Positions 1 through 50,721 of a stretch of 64,000 nt of DNA are shown one piece after another. The position numbers and the translations under genes were made by a program. The DNA is taken from contig JBAYVT010000002.1 of assembly GCA_041674405.1 (NCBI GenBank), positions 23,158 to 87,157 on the forward strand, written 5' to 3'. Position 1 is the stretch's first letter, and each line of letters opens with the position of its first letter. This DNA is from Patescibacteria group bacterium (GTDB lineage Bacteria > Patescibacteriota > UBA1384 > XYA2-FULL-43-10). Under the pieces are notes generated by a model that did no database searches, had not been told where the DNA came from, and worked only from the letters and a program-made list of their open reading frames with translations.

Positions 1-299
1 ACATTCCATGGGCGCACAAGCATGTTTGTAAAAAAACCATTCCAGATATCTTCTCCCAGATACAAAGAATCTGTTACCTCTATCCGGTAAATAAATGAGG
101 TAATCAAATAATAGGTGACCGTGCTTTTTAGTGAATAGCTCGCAATTTCGGCAGTCCCGGCAGTTGCATAAACCGATTTCCAAACAAGAAAGAAAATAAT
201 AAAAAAAACCATGTTAAAAAAGATCGACAAAGTAAAATCGGTCTTGTAGGCGGTGAAGCCTTTAAATTCAGTTAAAAAATGGAAATAATATTTCCTCAT
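1..299 (-). CDS. membrane protein, 5' part only; the ORF is open through the window start (ATG at 297-299, no stop before position 1)
   Basis: Hand translation of the minus strand gives about 100 stop-free codons, MRKYYFHFLTEFKGF...FFIIFFLVW..., which is hydrophobic. It is absent from the ORF track because it runs off the window edge. I saw no clear SD. Confidence 0.3.
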   Translation of the reverse strand, partial: MRKYYFHFLTEFKGFTAYKTDFTLSIFFNMVFFIIFFLVWKSVYATAGTAEIASYSLKSTVTYYLITSFIYRIEVTDSLYLGEDIWNGFFTNMLVRPWN

Positions 300-1586: not shown

Positions 1587-2894
<1,308 letters not shown>

Positions 2895-15838: not shown

Positions 15839-15907
15839 AATATTCCCAACAATAAAATAATAATTTACTCGTATAGATTATCATATTAAGACTAGGATTG
15901 AAAGTCT

Positions 15908-15937
15908 GGTAGCACAGGCGGAACCGCCTGTGCTACC
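15908..15937. other. perfect GC-rich hairpin ggtagcacaggcgg-aa-ccgcctgtgctacc
   Basis: Seen in sequence. Lies just 3' (on the minus strand) of the GC-rich micro-ORF. Confidence 0.5.
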
Positions 15938-15961
15938 GACGGCAGCAGAGGGTGTGGGACG

Positions 15962-16114
15962 TTATCCGGGCCAGTTGGCCGGATCGTTGTCGGGGTCGTA
16001 GGTGACTGGCTTAGCCCGTTTGCGGGCATCATTCAGGATGATCAACAGGTCGGCAAACGGCACATCGGGTACTGAGTCCGAAGCTACCTGGTAATCGCCG
16101 GCATAACCACACAT
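15962..16114 (-). CDS. GC-rich 50-aa micro-ORF (MCGYAGDYQVASDSVPDVPFADLLIILNDARKRAKPVTYDPDNDPANWPG), or an ncRNA
   Basis: AGGAGG SD 7 nt upstream of the ATG. Composition differs from its surroundings. Not statistically compelling on its own. Confidence 0.3.
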   Translation of the reverse strand: MCGYAGDYQVASDSVPDVPFADLLIILNDARKRAKPVTYDPDNDPANWPG

Positions 16115-16167
16115 AAAACTACCTCCTGGTCCTTGATTCCCTCTTGCATTTTATATATCACTTTAGA

Positions 16168-36974: not shown

Positions 36975-37679
36975 TTAATTTTTATCGTTAGCCACCGCCC
37001 CTTTGTTTTCTTTGATCGTTTTTGCAAATAAATTTACAAATAGGGCAATGGATTTTGTGGCATCGTCGTTAGCTGGAATAGGATAGTCGACTAGATTCGG
37101 ATCAGCATTGGTATCTACTATACCAATTGTCGTAACCCCAGATTGAGTTGCTTCTTTTATGGCATTTTTTTCATCATGAACCCCAACCAGGATGATTACG
37201 TCAGGCTGTTTGGAAAGGCCGACAAGTCCTCCGACCAATCTCTCGCCTTTTTCAATTTCTTTTGTAAGTTTTACTTTGTCGCGTTTTTTCATCTCTGCAA
37301 ATTCTGGGCTCGATACGATCAATCTGGCTCTTTCCAATTTCTTGAAAGCTTTCTGAACTGTGTTGAAATTTGTTAACATTCCACCCAGCCAACGAGAAAC
37401 AATGTAAGGCATACCACAATCCTGAGCGCCTTTTTTGACAATCTCTTGGGCCTGTTTTTTGGTACCAACAAATAGGACCGTTTTCCCTTCTTTGGCCGCT
37501 TCAGCTAAAAAATTCATCGCGTCGGAAAGCTGTGATTGCGTTTTTTCCAGATCAATAACATGGACACCAGATTTGGCGCCAAAAATAAATTTGTCCATTT
37601 TGGGGTGCCAACGACTGGTTTTGTGCCCAAAATGAACGCCTGCTTCGAGCATCTCTCGAAGTGTTGGTGTGGTAACCAT
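36975..37679 (-). CDS. rpsB: 30S ribosomal protein S2
   Basis: 234 aa. VHFGHKTSRWHPKM. Confidence 0.9.
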   Translation of the reverse strand: MVTTPTLREMLEAGVHFGHKTSRWHPKMDKFIFGAKSGVHVIDLEKTQSQLSDAMNFLAEAAKEGKTVLFVGTKKQAQEIVKKGAQDCGMPYIVSRWLGGMLTNFNTVQKAFKKLERARLIVSSPEFAEMKKRDKVKLTKEIEKGERLVGGLVGLSKQPDVIILVGVHDEKNAIKEATQSGVTTIGIVDTNADPNLVDYPIPANDDATKSIALFVNLFAKTIKENKGAVANDKN

Positions 37680-37810
37680 AAACGATTCTCCTTTTTAACC
37701 TCCGCCTTACGATTTACCTCGGCCCGAAGATTTCGGGACGGGCAAAGGATTTTTTAATCTCGGCTCGCCCAAAGGACGAGACGGATGAGAAAGGCGTGTG
37801 AATTTATTAA
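37680..37810 (-). promoter_or_regulatory. structured 5' leader of rpsB (hairpin cccgaa-atc-ttcggg and flanking GC pairings), a possible S2 autoregulatory element
   Basis: A GC-rich structured stretch seen between the putative promoter (TTGAAA...TATGATAAT, minus strand, about 37815-37856) and the AAAGGAGA SD. Confidence 0.3.
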
Positions 37811-37877
37811 CAATTAATTACTTTTAAGACATTATCATATTTTTTGGATAATTTCAATATTTAACCCGAACAATCCC

Positions 37878-37906
37878 TTGACATAATTTAAAAATATTGT
37901 TAAAGT
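37878..37906 (+). promoter_or_regulatory. sigma70-like promoter TTGACA-17-TAAAGT driving the ncRNA-tRNA unit
   Basis: Seen in sequence. Confidence 0.4.
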
Positions 37907-37913
37907 CGTTTTT

Positions 37914-38094
37914 GTCGGTTTCGCGGGAGATCGAAACCTGACGGGGCGAGGGTTCAAGGAGTCCGCTCCAGTCTCCCGCCTAATGGTGGCGAAGCGAAAG
38001 CTTATTGCCGAGAGGCAATCGCAAGTAACCAATCTTGCCGCCATCCCAAACATTAAACCGCCCATGGGCGGTTAAGCTTGCCTCTTTGGAGGCA
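37914..38094 (+). ncRNA. unassigned GC-rich structured RNA (~180 nt) co-transcribed with tRNA-Ile
   Basis: Multiple perfect hairpins: ggtttcg/cgaaacc, ggag-tccg-ctcc, attgcc-gaga-ggcaat, ccgccca/tgggcgg, tgcctc-tttg-gaggca. The only track ORF here (76 aa, minus strand) is implausible. Confidence 0.35.
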
Positions 38095-38171
38095 GGGTAC
38101 GTAGCTCAGTTGGATAGAGCGTCTCCCTGATAAGGAGAAGGCCGGGGGTTCAATCCCCTCCGTACCCACCA
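38095..38171 (+). tRNA. tRNA-Ile (anticodon GAU), CCA encoded
   Basis: Acceptor stem GGGTACG/CGTACCC. D-arm GCTCAGTTGGATAGAGC. Anticodon loop CTGATAA. T-arm GGGGGTTCAATCCCCTC. Discriminator A followed by CCA. Confidence 0.85.
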
Positions 38172-38176
38172 CCCTT

Positions 38177-38216
38177 CCCTCTCTGCGCCTCGCGCAGAGA
38201 GGGTTTCCCGTTTTTA
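38177..38216 (+). terminator. intrinsic terminator ccctctctgcg-loop-cgcagagaggg followed by tttcccgttttt
   Basis: Seen in sequence. Confidence 0.7.
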
Positions 38217-38257
38217 GGCTTGATTTTAAGTCAATATTCTGTTAATATAATTTCGTT

Positions 38258-38551
38258 ATGAAAAAAGTCATTCATCCAACTTATTATCCTGAGGCTAAGG
38301 TCACATGTGCATGTGGTGCAACTTTTACTATGGGATCAACCGAAAAAGAGATTCATGTAGAAATCTGCTCCGCCTGTCACCCATACTTTACCGGCAAAGA
38401 AAAACTGGTTGATACCGCTGGCCGCGTCGATAAATTTAAAGAGCGAATGGAAGCAGCCAAGAAGTTCAAAGAAACTAAAGAACTGAAGAACAAAAGAACC
38501 GAAGAACCAAAAGAGAATACTTCCAAAAACGAAAAATCTGAAGATAAATAG
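38258..38551 (+). CDS. rpmE: 50S ribosomal protein L31 with a Lys/Glu-rich C-terminal extension
   Basis: [10 protein letters not shown]...CACG...[10 protein letters not shown] zinc-ribbon L31 signature. Confidence 0.85.
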
Positions 38552-38570
38552 CTCAATTTGAGATACAATG

Positions 38571-38605
38571 AAACCAGCGAGAATTTTCAAGCTGGTTTTT
38601 CATTA
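38571..38605 (+). terminator. hairpin aaaccagc/gctggttt followed by a T-tract
   Basis: Seen in sequence after rpmE. Confidence 0.55.
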
Positions 38606-38641
38606 TCTAACATAAGCCCAATAAGTCTTATTAGAATTTTT

Positions 38642-39715
38642 ATGAACGATAAACTACAAAAAATTTTAGATCGTTATTACAAACTCGATAATAAACTCAA
38701 GGATCCGGCGTTATCGTCAAATCCCGAGGAATTGGCTCACGTCGCTAAAGAAAAAGCTGAGATCGAAGATGATGCCAAAAAAATCGAGCGTTATTTTCAA
38801 ATTGAAAAAAATATTGAAGAAAATAAAGAAATAATTCGCGATAATGATCCCGAACTTTCTGAAATCGCAGAGTCCGAGCTCGATGATTTAACAGCGGAAA
38901 AATCTAATCTGGAACAAGATTTGAAGCGTCTCCTCGTTCCGGAAGATCCAATGGACAAAAAAAACGTCATCATCGAAATTCGCCCGGCAGCCGGTGGTGA
39001 TGAGTCAGAGCTTTTCGCTGCTAAGATTTTTCGGATGTACTCTCGCTACGCTGAGCGCCAGGGTTGGAAAATGGAAATTTTAAATTCATCAATGAGTGGG
39101 ATTGGGGGCATTAAGGACCTTTCATTTGAAATTAAAGGCGACAAGGTCTATTCGAAAATGAAATACGAATCAGGTGTTCATCGAGTCCAGAGAGTACCAG
39201 AAACTGAAAAAGCCGGCAGAATTCATACCTCAACAGTTACCGTGGCGGTACTTCCGGAAGCTGAGGAAGCTGATATTGAAATAAAACCCGAGGACCTTCG
39301 AATCGATGTTTTTCGATCCTCCGGCCCTGGCGGCCAATCGGTAAATACAACTGATTCCGCCGTTCGAATCACGCATACACCAACCGGGCTTGTGGTTACC
39401 TGCCAAGATGAAAAATCGCAATTGAAAAATAAGGCAAAAGCCCTGAACATCTTACGCTCTCGGCTTCTTTCGGCTGAAGAAGAAAGGTTATCCAAAGAAA
39501 GGGGAGATGCTCGCCGTTCGCAGATCGGCACCGGAGATAGATCGGAAAAAATCCGCACTTATAACTTCCCCCAAGATCGCATTACCGATCACCGGATCAA
39601 TATGTCCTGGCATTCATTGCCAAAAATTATGGATGGTGATATTGAGCCGATAATTACTGCCCTCATTGCGGAAGACCAAGCACGAAAATTACAATCTGAA
39701 TCTAATGAATCTTAA
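38642..39715 (+). CDS. prfA: peptide chain release factor 1
   Basis: GGQ motif ([11 protein letters not shown]). PET (PxT) tripeptide. Start taken at the ATG at 38642 (MNDKLQK). Confidence 0.9.
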
Positions 39716-40568: not shown

Positions 40569-40593
40569 AAAATCCGCCATCGGGCGGATTTTT
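40568..40593. terminator. bidirectional terminator aaaaatccgcc-atcg-ggcggattttt between convergent prmC and htrA
   Basis: Seen in sequence. Confidence 0.6.
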
Positions 40594-49436: not shown

Positions 49437-49463
49437 TTGACAAAACTACCCTTATGTTATAAT
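49437..49463 (+). promoter_or_regulatory. near-consensus sigma70 promoter TTGACA-15nt-TGtTATAAT (extended -10)
   Basis: Seen in sequence. Followed by AGGAGG at 49501-49506 and the ATG at 49509. Confidence 0.55.
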
Positions 49464-49508
49464 ATTCCAAGTTGGACTCATACACCGACATACAGGCTAC
49501 AGGAGGAG

Positions 49509-50102
49509 ATGTTCGTGATCGACAAAGTTAGAGAGTTCAAACCATGGGAGAAGCCGAGGGCTGACGGGAAGCACAGCATCAGCTTCTTGATCGGGTTTCG
49601 TGCCGTACTTGCGATCCCGATCCAGCACTATGACGCCGTTCTCGGCGGTCTCTACTGCGTCGCCGTCCTCCTGCTTAGAGAGGATGGGGACCATGAGATC
49701 AGAGACCGGTCGAGCGGGCTCTTGGAAATCTTGGCAGGCCGAGAACAGGATAACCTGCCACTTTCCGATCCGGCCAAGCTCGAGATGTTGGTCGGGGTCC
49801 TGTCTTCGATCTCATCCAACTCGACCGCCTACCGGCTGTACAGGAACACGGCAACCCGCAGGGTCGTGATCGTCCGCGAGGAAGGCGAAATCGGCGAAGG
49901 GGCTACAGAGAAACCTGAGAAAAGACCAGCAGGCATCGCTGCCTGGTCCGTCGAAAGGTTCAATGAATGTCTCGCTCGTGGCCACCACCGGTTCGAGGGA
50001 CGCATTCTGGTGAACAACCGAGGGGGCCAGCCTTACGAGCTGATGGTGTGCACTGACTGCAGAGTCACGATCGCAGCGATGCAAGTGATCCCGGGCAAAT
50101 AG
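49509..50102 (+). CDS. island ORF1, 197-aa hypothetical protein (two hydrophobic segments plus a soluble C-terminal part)
   Basis: A long stop-free ORF in GC-rich sequence with a strong SD. The track ORF starts at 49437, but that ATG lies inside the promoter. Confidence 0.55.
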   Translation: MFVIDKVREFKPWEKPRADGKHSISFLIGFRAVLAIPIQHYDAVLGGLYCVAVLLLREDGDHEIRDRSSGLLEILAGREQDNLPLSDPAKLEMLVGVLSSISSNSTAYRLYRNTATRRVVIVREEGEIGEGATEKPEKRPAGIAAWSVERFNECLARGHHRFEGRILVNNRGGQPYELMVCTDCRVTIAAMQVIPGK

Positions 50103-50128
50103 CCCAAGAAGGAGGATAGAGCCGAGCG

Positions 50129-50165
50129 GCCCCGATTCAATTCGGGGTCGTTCTGCGTTTTATCC
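50129..50165 (+). terminator. weak hairpin gccccga-ttcaat-tcggggt followed by ...gcgtttt
   Basis: Seen in sequence. Confidence 0.35.
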
Positions 50166-50246
50166 ACAGCAATATTTTTGACAGCGGTATATATCAAGTG
50201 GTAAGTCTAAAATAGATCGTATTACTTCCGCATCGGGGTGATTTTG

Positions 50247-50639
50247 ATGGGAAGTTCGTCAGGTCGGCGTCGACGCCCGTCTTCGGTATGGAAGCAAGCA
50301 TACCGCGCGAATGGTAAAGCTCACAAGCTCACCAAGTCGGGCGAAGACGAGAAGGCTGCCGAGGCGTTTTACCAGAAGGTAGGCTGTGTCTGCGAGACAT
50401 CGCTTACCCCAGGCTTTACGCAATGGCAATGGGATCCTGTCGTAGAAGCCGTCTCGGTATCTCTAGCACACCCGCCGAAGAAAGAACGGCACAAGCGACT
50501 CCATGTTCCTCCAGACGTACTGGAGGAATACATCAGAGGGAACGGCTTTTCAAGCCGCGAAAGGAACTTCCTTCTGAAGCGCCTTCGGCAAGTACTTCGG
50601 TACCGAGAGAAAGGCGCTCCCCAACCTTACGTTCGGTAG
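50247..50639 (+). CDS. island ORF2, ~131-aa very basic hypothetical protein (MGSSSGRRRRPSS...KRLRQVLRYREK)
   Basis: Stop-free in GC-rich sequence. TTGACA at about 50176 upstream. Weak SD (ggggtg). Confidence 0.45.
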   Translation: MGSSSGRRRRPSSVWKQAYRANGKAHKLTKSGEDEKAAEAFYQKVGCVCETSLTPGFTQWQWDPVVEAVSVSLAHPPKKERHKRLHVPPDVLEEYIRGNGFSSRERNFLLKRLRQVLRYREKGAPQPYVR

Positions 50640-50671
50640 GCAACCCTACTCTATCAACCCCGCAGTAACCT

Positions 50672-50710
50672 CGCGCGGGCCATCCGTGGCTCGCGCGTTC
50701 CCCGTTTTTT
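50672..50710 (+). terminator. intrinsic terminator cgcgcgggcc-atccgt-ggctcgcgcg followed by ttccccgtttttt
   Basis: Seen in sequence. Confidence 0.65.
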
Positions 50711-50721
50711 AGTACAAAATT

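Follow-up and report, generated by a model that had tools for sequence, protein, structure and literature searches.

A tRNA-Ile(GAU) unit between rpsB and rpmE

The stretch of DNA analysed here (64,000 nucleotides of contig JBAYVT010000002.1 from a Patescibacteria group bacterium, referred to below as the window) contains a single tRNA gene, a tRNA-Ile(GAU) found with ARAGORN, which sits in the 578-nt gap between the divergent genes rpsB (36975-37679, minus strand) and rpmE (38258-38551, plus strand). Immediately upstream of this tRNA gene lies a GC-rich element of about 180 nt, which a first-pass annotation had left unassigned and for which it had offered three options: a 6S-like RNA, a highly reduced ribozyme or RNA-processing element, or a long structured tRNA leader. 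Only the last of these survived our analysis. The transcription unit comprises the following features.

37878-37906, plus strand: sigma-70-type promoter, TTGACA, 17-nt spacer and TGn-extended TAAAGT
37912-38094, plus strand: structured leader of 183 nt, between the promoter and tRNA-Ile
38095-38171, plus strand: tRNA-Ile(GAU), called by ARAGORN and scoring 72.6 bits with the Rfam tRNA model, CCA encoded
38177-38216, plus strand: intrinsic terminator, 12-bp stem CCCUCUCUGCGC/GCGCAGAGAGGG followed by UUUCCCGUUUUU, read from the sequence

The promoter had been proposed as TTGACA-17-TAAAGT and is indeed present: TTGACA occupies 37878-37883 and TAAAGT 37901-37906, a TG precedes the -10 hexamer, and with a score of 10/12 it is the top promoter-like site within 37600-38400. 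A scan of the same interval found no further plus-strand promoter or terminator between 37906 and tRNA-Ile, in agreement with the earlier view that the element runs directly into the tRNA. From the extended -10 promoter, the transcript start is predicted at about 37913. The terminator, which the first-pass annotation had overlooked, was identified by reading the sequence and was not called by a simple terminator scan. The leader lies inside one promoter-to-terminator unit together with tRNA-Ile, having a promoter upstream, being contiguous with the tRNA and being separated from it by neither promoter nor terminator, as is expected of a pre-tRNA 5' leader.

Composition and folding of the leader

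The G+C content of 37912-38094 is 0.563 as against 0.402 in the remaining window, which bears out the description of the element as a GC-rich stretch. Its minimum free energy (MFE) of -76.2 kcal/mol was compared with that of 200 dinucleotide shuffles (-59.9 +/- 4.5 kcal/mol; z = -3.64), only one of which folded equally well, so that the claim of strong folding also holds; the opposite strand is less exceptional (z = -2.5). The MFE and centroid folds agree on five independent domains, and in both the 5' and 3' ends of the leader are unpaired with each other. All the hairpins listed in the first-pass annotation were found, with small corrections to their coordinates. The domains are as follows.

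37913-37943, plus strand: 5'-proximal hairpin, GUCGGUUUCG / CGAAACC-GAC, in the MFE fold, within a few bases of the predicted start
37944-37981, plus strand: imperfect hairpin, in the MFE fold
37985-38045, plus strand: four-way junction (cloverleaf) of 61 nt, seen in the folds and by ARAGORN in its relaxed mitochondrial mode
38058-38071, plus strand: hairpin CCGCC-CAUG-GGCGG, in the MFE fold
38079-38094, plus strand: hairpin UGCCUC-UUUG-GAGGCA, in the MFE fold, ending one base before the mature 5' end of tRNA-Ile

In the first domain GGTTTCG (37917-37923) pairs with CGAAACC (37932-37938), and in all relatives that have the operon a helix likewise begins at the same GUYG. A further short hairpin, GGAG-TCCG-CTCC, occupies 37958-37969.

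The cloverleaf, which had also been overlooked, is closed by a 7-bp stem (GGUGGCG/CGCCAUC) and carries three arms, AAGC-GAAA-GCUU, AUUGCC-GAGA-GGCAAU (38004-38019) and GCAAG-UAACCAAU-CUUGC, of which two end in GNRA tetraloops. It resembles a tRNA in being a four-way junction with an acceptor-like closing stem of 7 bp, and ARAGORN calls it at 37984-38046 in relaxed mitochondrial mode; in standard mode at the 80% threshold no tRNA was called there. There is no anticodon loop: AUUGCC-GAGA-GGCAAU occupies the anticodon position and is capped by a tetraloop, so that the 7-nt loop with U33 is missing.

Hairpins of the form CCGCC-N4-GGCGG occur twice in the 64 kb, where 0.1 would be expected, and GCCTC-N-GAGGC occurs once. 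A blastn search of the leader against the window returned no second copy. We therefore rejected a repeat or mobile element, there being no dispersed family of GC clusters in the window. The second CCGCC-N4-GGCGG hairpin (40574-40587) lies just past prmC, between convergent genes, and is presumably a terminator.

Searches against known RNA families

In order to assign the element to a family, we searched Rfam at four settings. At the gathering score the whole window matched only at tRNA-Ile; nothing besides the tRNA was matched in the whole window at E <= 0.5 or in 37600-38300 (701 nt) at E <= 10; and the 190-nt element alone (37905-38094) matched no model at E <= 10, that of tRNA included. These results exclude detectable forms of RNase P RNA, 6S, SRP RNA, tmRNA, 5S, YrlA, riboswitches and self-cleaving ribozymes, and agree with the earlier failure to name a family. 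The opinion that the element is neither SRP RNA nor tmRNA was likewise upheld, as neither had an Rfam match and ARAGORN found no tmRNA. Hammerhead, twister, pistol, hatchet and HDV-like models were unmatched on the 190 nt at E <= 10, and so was the YrlA model RF02553. SRP RNA, tmRNA, 5S and self-cleaving ribozymes were rejected on both fold and model match. Five related loci yielded only tRNAs with Rfam.

The same locus in relatives

The S2 and L31 proteins encoded beside the unit are 100% identical to proteins listed by NCBI under 'Patescibacteria group bacterium'. Contigs of relatives were fetched through close homologues of S2 and L31; the close relatives are 79 to 86% identical to the window in RpsB or 88 to 93% in L31. 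Six contigs were observed to have a tRNA operon in the rpsB/rpmE gap.

L033 (L31 93%): four-way junction as in L008; the order of L008 with tRNA-Arg(CCT) added before the tRNA-like gene and tRNA-Ala after tRNA-Ile
L036 (L31 90%): leader of 20 nt; tRNA-Pro-like gene, 55-nt cloverleaf module, hairpin, tRNA-Ile, and hairpin UGCCUC-UACG-GAGGCA flush with tRNA-Met
L034 (L31 88%): leader of 25 nt; tRNA-Ile, hairpin, tRNA-Pro
L011 (RpsB 86%): hairpin domain and 85-nt cloverleaf; tRNA-Pro, 55-nt module, CCGCC-UUCG-GGCGG hairpin, odd tRNA-like RNA
L008 (RpsB 82%): leader with 150-nt four-way junction and 13-bp closing helix; capped-anticodon tRNA-like gene, cloverleaf module, hairpin, tRNA-Ile
L014 (RpsB 79%): large four-way junction; tRNA with GUU anticodon, then contig end

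Common to the six operons are a TTGACAY-N16-TAnnnT promoter and a YUUUUGUYG transcript start, and the rpmE promoter is likewise the same. The terminator keeps its position, with hairpins of differing sequence and a U-rich tract in L008, L011, L033, L034 and L036. What lies between promoter and terminator varies by genome: leader length runs from 20 nt up to about 185 nt, tRNAs for Arg, Pro, Asn, Ile, Ala and Met occur, and tRNA-shaped RNAs that have no anticodon loop accompany them. In L006 (RpsB 81%) rpmE and rpsB are only 254 nt apart, with no tRNA operon between them, and the operon is also absent from this locus in L009, L012 and L013 (RpsB 63-68%). A scan of genome contigs with RpsB gave only matches of 43% identity from other phyla, and a scan of metagenomes with the tRNA-Ile sequence gave nothing. 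When metagenomes were searched for the pattern of promoter and leader start, 17 loci were obtained, none with a leader of the window's type; those in which tRNAs followed the pattern (L022, L023, L024 and L030) have short leaders. One contig copy in ENA (L004) is identical to the window across its whole 6.7 kb and so shows no population variation.

These observations establish that the leader is not conserved as a unit, and that relatives express the same tRNA-Ile behind leaders of 20-25 nt or behind other tRNAs. The first-pass annotation had said that a lack of conserved structure or covariation in relatives would refute it. This is the case for most of the element, and recognisable counterparts exist only for the cloverleaf's closing stem and for the two hairpins at the 3' end.

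Two other elements of the relatives' operons were noted. The first is a four-way-junction RNA of 150-175 nt which starts the operon in L008 (2110-2266, minus strand), L033 (143-293) and L014 (66-236, minus strand). It is closed by the 13-bp helix GUUGUGAGUGGCG/CGCCAUUCACAAC, has no Rfam match and shows compensatory changes at 13 of its 38 predicted pairs among the three sequences. A covariance model built from these three (R1) scores its members at 118-155 bits; on 37000-39000 of the window, with filters off, it gave only generic hairpin matches of at most 6.3 bits. The second is a tRNA-Pro-like gene, located at 2023-2097 (minus strand) in L008, 391-469 in L033, 151-225 in L036 and about 1-60 (minus strand) in L014, with C1-G72, A73 and an encoded CCA. 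The Rfam tRNA model gives 49-51 bits to the copies of L008 and L033, while those of L036 and L014 were recognised from sequence and ARAGORN only. Its anticodon arm has a perfect stem everywhere, of which the sequence and the loop are specific to each genome (UGCCUC-AUGU-GAGGCA, CCGGA-UUUGUAGA-UCCGG and, in L036, CCCCC-GGGU-GGGGG). A normal anticodon loop (CUGUUAA) is found in L014 alone, where a 16-nt hairpin is also inserted in the D loop. From its sequence the gene looks like a selected tRNA-shaped RNA that is unable to decode. The window retains just a trace of it.

Collinearity with the closest relative and a probable tRNA relic

A gap-tolerant global alignment of the window with L033, the closest relative, was found to be collinear. 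The promoters align; the window is without the large junction element, and the tRNA with the capped anticodon is nearly all gone. The cloverleaf is bracketed by GGUGGCG in the window as against GGUGGUG in L033, and by an identical GCCGCCAUC. In the 3' part the hairpin, tRNA-Ile, the terminator and the rpmE promoter follow in order. The hairpin at 38058-38071 has a counterpart at the equivalent place in L011, with the same stem, a UUCG loop and the same GGUUA tail, and the stem of that at 38079-38094 recurs in L036 under a UACG loop, in a hairpin that abuts tRNA-Met. Indeed, GC-rich hairpins of 5-7 bp end 0-2 nt upstream of the mature 5' ends of most tRNAs of these operons: tRNA-Ile (window, L008, L033, L036), tRNA-Ala (L033), tRNA-Pro (L034) and tRNA-Met (L036). 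After the predicted RNase P cleavage, the upstream fragment would terminate in such a flush hairpin.

Within the 5' part of the leader, the following feature overlaps the first two domains.

37921-37981, plus strand: probable relic of one or two tRNA genes, with an acceptor-like helix, a T-arm remnant and an acceptor 3' strand

The acceptor-like helix would be formed by GCGGGAGA (37923-37930) with UCUCCCGC (37972-37979). The 12 bases CGAGGGUUCAAG at 37947-37958 are 12/12 identical to the T-stem and T-loop of the tRNA-Pro of L034 (z 4.1), and the 10-mer UCCGCUCCAG at 37962-37971 is identical to the acceptor 3' strand and UCCA of the tRNA-Arg(CCT) of L033; the two matches stand in the correct order. 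In the gap-tolerant global alignment 37921-37971 aligns with the 3' half of the latter tRNA. The whole segment is alike to this tRNA-Arg in 37 of 49 aligned columns. This score was reached by 0/500 mononucleotide shuffles and by 36/1000 dinucleotide shuffles, and because of the latter figure the reading of 37921-37981 as a tRNA relic is suggestive, not proven. As judged from these comparisons, parts of the leader have counterparts, by position and to some extent by sequence, among the tRNA and tRNA-like genes of the relatives.

Pairing in the cloverleaf module

The place and closing stem of the cloverleaf match those of a 55-nt cloverleaf module in L008, L033, L036 and L011: it occupies the same place in the operon and has the same GGYGGYG strand with its complement. 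The closing stem has all its bases paired (100%) in the window and in three relatives, two of the pairs being compensatory (U-A to C-G) and none broken. Its score was equalled by 32/500 shuffles for the four sequences, and since GGYGGYG is repetitive a register shift of 3 is nearly as good. The 55-nt module of the relatives keeps 18/18 pairs in four genomes, 3 of them compensatory, and its covariation score was reached by 7/500 shuffles. Compensatory changes without a broken pair suggest that some of this structure is under selection.

A covariance model of the relatives' 55-nt module (R2) scores true members at 74-84 bits. It also picks up genuine tRNAs at 22 and 14 bits, which marks the module as tRNA-derived. 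On 37900-38100 its best match is exactly 37985-38046, with the helices in register, at 6.9 bits (E 0.078 for 201 nt); across the 64-kb window it reported no match at E <= 10.

A probable leader made of tRNA-type remains

The above findings led us to the view that the element is probably a fast-evolving, structured pre-tRNA leader, composed of tRNA-type remains and removed by RNase P. On this view the element serves as 5' leader, or external transcribed spacer, to a unit with tRNA-Ile(GAU) as its only gene. Transcription would start at about 37913, pass through a leader of about 182 nt and then the tRNA, and end at the hairpin with its U-tract (38177-38216). The leader would be a string of independent GC-rich modules and no single designed RNA: a 5' hairpin, a degraded 3' half of a tRNA, an anticodon-less cloverleaf and two hairpins, the last of them flush with the tRNA. 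These modules would be remnants or reworked parts of the longer tRNA and tRNA-like operon which is still present at this locus in relatives. A cut by RNase P between 38094 and 38095 would free the leader. Selection may maintain its stems because they tie up spacer bases which could otherwise mispair with the tRNA, and because they protect the ends of the precursor; beyond this the leader would have no sequence-specific function of its own.

Several lines of evidence favour this view. The element shares one transcription unit with tRNA-Ile and matches no known RNA family. The locus has been remodelled quickly among close relatives, which have short leaders, other elements or no operon at all. 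The leader is collinear with L033 and contains the 12-mer and 10-mer tRNA matches in order, and the cloverleaf module of the relatives is itself tRNA-like. Several points weigh against it. The Rfam tRNA model matched neither the cloverleaf nor the relic 37921-37981 (190 nt, E <= 10), and the likeness to tRNA-Arg is modest by the standard of the dinucleotide shuffles. Perfect stems, two of them GNRA-capped, are unexpected in a freely decaying pseudogene. The compensatory pairs in the closing stem and in the relatives' module could mean that some structure is selected and has a function of its own. Finally, the comparison covers seven operon variants.

If the element is such a leader, the outcome is plainly negative: a striking island of structured, GC-rich sequence within a reduced genome that is otherwise AT-rich need not be a missing housekeeping RNA, and caution is due before reduced ribozymes are seen in GC-rich islands beside tRNAs. 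It would also mean that a tRNA operon of Patescibacteria is remodelled fast, its genes becoming folded spacers in which pairing is kept and sequence is not.

Alternative explanations

The best of the alternatives sees a functional tRNA-like RNA without decoding capacity in the leader as a whole or in its 61-nt cloverleaf. A stable small RNA with structured ends would be freed when RNase P cuts at 38094/38095 and perhaps also behind the acceptor-like stem of the cloverleaf. The freed RNA might act as processing punctuation, as a decoy for tRNA-binding enzymes or as a scaffold, and would belong to a lineage-specific set of tRNA-shaped, anticodon-less RNAs in the tRNA operon. In its favour, the 7-bp closing stem and the third arm make 12 stacked pairs, as in the acceptor/T minihelix of a tRNA, the tetraloop-capped stems are perfect, and hairpins stand at both ends of the leader as they do in stable small RNAs. 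The compensatory changes described above and the tRNA-Pro-like gene of the relatives, with its perfect anticodon stem and a normal loop in L014 only, point in the same direction. However, R2 gave the cloverleaf only 6.9 bits and reported nothing at E <= 10 in the search of the whole window, all three of its arms are unlike those in relatives, L034 has no such module and L006 lacks the entire operon. Moreover, because they rest on 4-5 sequences only, the covariation statistics are weak, as the 32/500 shuffles for the closing stem illustrate. On balance we regard a functional tRNA-like RNA as possible and rather unlikely. Were it true, these organisms would retain several non-decoding tRNA-shaped RNAs, which would give a new handle on RNA processing in cells with a diverged RNase P and few ribonucleases.

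The wider proposal, that one lineage of Patescibacteria has a set of selected non-decoding tRNA-shaped RNAs in a single tRNA operon, we consider doubtful. Its members may be the cloverleaf of 55-61 nt, the capped-anticodon tRNA-Pro-like RNA and the four-way junction of 150-175 nt, with the window's leader holding one of them. This RNA may be freed by RNase P with hairpins at both ends and may serve in tRNA processing or as a decoy.

It could also be argued that the 5' part of the leader is a cis-regulatory device, an attenuator or riboswitch which sets the amount of tRNA-Ile through two exclusive folds of 37913-37981. An 8-bp long-range helix of GCGGGAGA (37923-37930) with TCTCCCGC (37972-37979) competes with the 5' hairpins. 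Since it overlaps the hairpin 37913-37943 the two are alternatives, and the resulting folds are nearly equal, at -27.9 vs -25.7 kcal/mol, or about 2 kcal/mol apart. The leader nevertheless contains no plus-strand terminator or U-tract, no riboswitch family was matched at E <= 10, and the alternative folds were not seen in relatives. Furthermore, L034 and L036 make tRNA-Ile from the same promoter with leaders of 20-25 nt or after other tRNAs. We find such regulation improbable.

Another reading takes the element for a ribozyme transcribed together with its substrate, be it a drastically shortened RNase P RNA or one of a different kind, and AAGGAGUCCGCUCC and AAAGCUUAUUGCC do bear a faint likeness to the CR-I and CR-V motifs, as the first-pass annotation had remarked. 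RNase P RNAs of Patescibacteria are also known to be diverged and can fall below the cut-offs of Rfam (Lui et al., PMC8172020). However, the CR-I-like GAGUCCGC (within 37956-37969) and the CR-V-like GCGAAAGCUUA (within 37993-38008) share a complement of 3 nt only, so that P4 cannot form, and in the MFE fold each is consumed in its own perfect local hairpin. At 183 nt the leader is smaller than the smallest known forms. RF00010 and RF00011 were unmatched at the gathering score, at E <= 0.5 on the window and at E <= 10 on the 701 nt and the 190 nt, and no ribozyme model matched the 190 nt, whereas the diverged RNAs retained many conserved features and were recovered via RF00010 (PMC8172020). In relatives the place is taken by 20-25-nt leaders (L034, L036), or the operon is missing (L006). 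RNase P RNA was rejected on these grounds (no P4, size, no model match, no conservation at the locus), and neither the CR-I/CR-V likeness nor the option of a reduced ribozyme or RNA-processing element outlived the analysis; we give it very little credence.

We think equally little of a 6S-like RNA and of any other RNA-polymerase-binding regulator. About 180 nt is a typical length for 6S RNA, and 6S RNAs are hard to find by sequence. Nevertheless, the reading fails because the fold is no rod: there are five independent domains with unpaired ends in place of a long rod with a central bubble. RF00013 was unmatched at E <= 10 on the 701 nt and the 190 nt, and the element is not conserved in relatives. 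Lastly, a protein-coding function can practically be dismissed, for although a 76-aa antisense open reading frame (ORF; 37835-38065) and a 30-aa sense ORF (37983-38075) exist, neither has a Pfam match or a plausible ribosome-binding site, the DNA under both has been replaced in relatives, and the antisense frame, already called implausible in the earlier annotation, is a chance product of the GC-rich palindromic stretch.

Other features of the window

The rpmE promoter (38220-38260 of the window) reads TTGATT-N18-TAATAT with a TGn extension and ends 8 nt upstream of the ATG, with no Shine-Dalgarno sequence, and from its sequence the rpmE mRNA is probably leaderless. The block AGGCTTGATTT is kept in L006, L008, L011, L033 and L034, and L036 has it with one base changed (AAGCTTGATTT). 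On the other side, the 5' untranslated region (UTR) of rpsB (37680-37806, minus strand) has a conserved AUUCACACGCCnnUCUCA at its start and nnGGCGGAGG farther downstream; in the window and at most of the loci, the latter directly precedes the Shine-Dalgarno sequence. The same motifs were found at the equivalent place in L006, L008, L009, L011, L012, L013, L014 and L034. Hexamers of the two parts co-vary among genomes (CGCCUU/AAGGCG, CGCCCC/GGGGCG, CGCUCC/GGAGCG, CGCCCU/AGGGCG and UGCCCU/AGGGCA), which argues for a long-range helix around a variable insert. The rpsB 5' UTR had no Rfam match (37600-38300, E <= 10), and its sequence makes it a candidate autoregulatory leader of S2.

Two further GC-rich islands were noted in the window. 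The first (15880-16130), whose G+C content reaches 66%, is flanked on either side by a minus-strand gene, contains a 50-aa ORF (15962-16114, minus strand) with a Shine-Dalgarno sequence and a terminator hairpin, and looks like a small gene of foreign composition. The second (49437-50720, 1.3 kb, about 60% G+C) contains two plus-strand ORFs (about 49516-50102 and 50238-50639), each with its own TTGACA/TATAAT-type promoter, and a terminator at its end. It had no Rfam match at E <= 1 and is probably horizontally acquired coding DNA.

Comparison with known systems

In bacterial tRNA operons, RNase P removes the 5' leaders and transcribed spacers, some of which survive as by-products. In E. coli, the glyW-cysT-leuZ transcript reportedly has a 3' external transcribed spacer that acts as a sponge for small RNAs (Lalaouna et al. 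2015). The leader described here is like these in its position, which extends from a promoter to the 5' end of a mature tRNA and contains no further promoter or terminator, and in having a sequence that is unconserved beyond close relatives. It differs in being far longer and more structured than bacterial leaders usually are (about 182 nt, 56% G+C), where relatives manage with 20-25 nt, and in containing tRNA remnants as well as a cloverleaf.

Several systems have tRNA-like processing elements: plant mitochondria contain t-elements, MALAT1 carries mascRNA at its 3' end, and in haloarchaea a tRNA-like structure lies upstream of 5S rRNA. With these, and with tRNA pseudogenes, the leader shares an acceptor-like stem, a cloverleaf topology, a T-arm remnant and a position within a transcript that would be processed by tRNA enzymes. 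The cloverleaf of the window differs from them in having no recognisable T or D loop and no match to the Rfam tRNA model. In the bacterial Y RNAs of the YrlA family (RF02553) the T and D loops are conserved and one stem binds Ro60, and these RNAs are encoded beside the Ro60 gene (PMC4201824). They share with our cloverleaf a tRNA shape without an anticodon loop; here, there is no RF02553 match and the immediate neighbours are rpsB and rpmE (a Ro60 gene was not searched for elsewhere in the window). RNase P RNAs of the Candidate Phyla Radiation (PMC8172020) come from the same phylum, lie below the default Rfam thresholds and have a link to tRNA processing, but they keep their core and are found with RF00010 at a lowered score, whereas the leader has no P4, no match and no conservation. 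Structured leaders, tRNA pseudogenes and tRNA-like processing elements are thus already known, and the element upstream of tRNA-Ile(GAU) is an unusually long, well-folded and lineage-specific variant of them.

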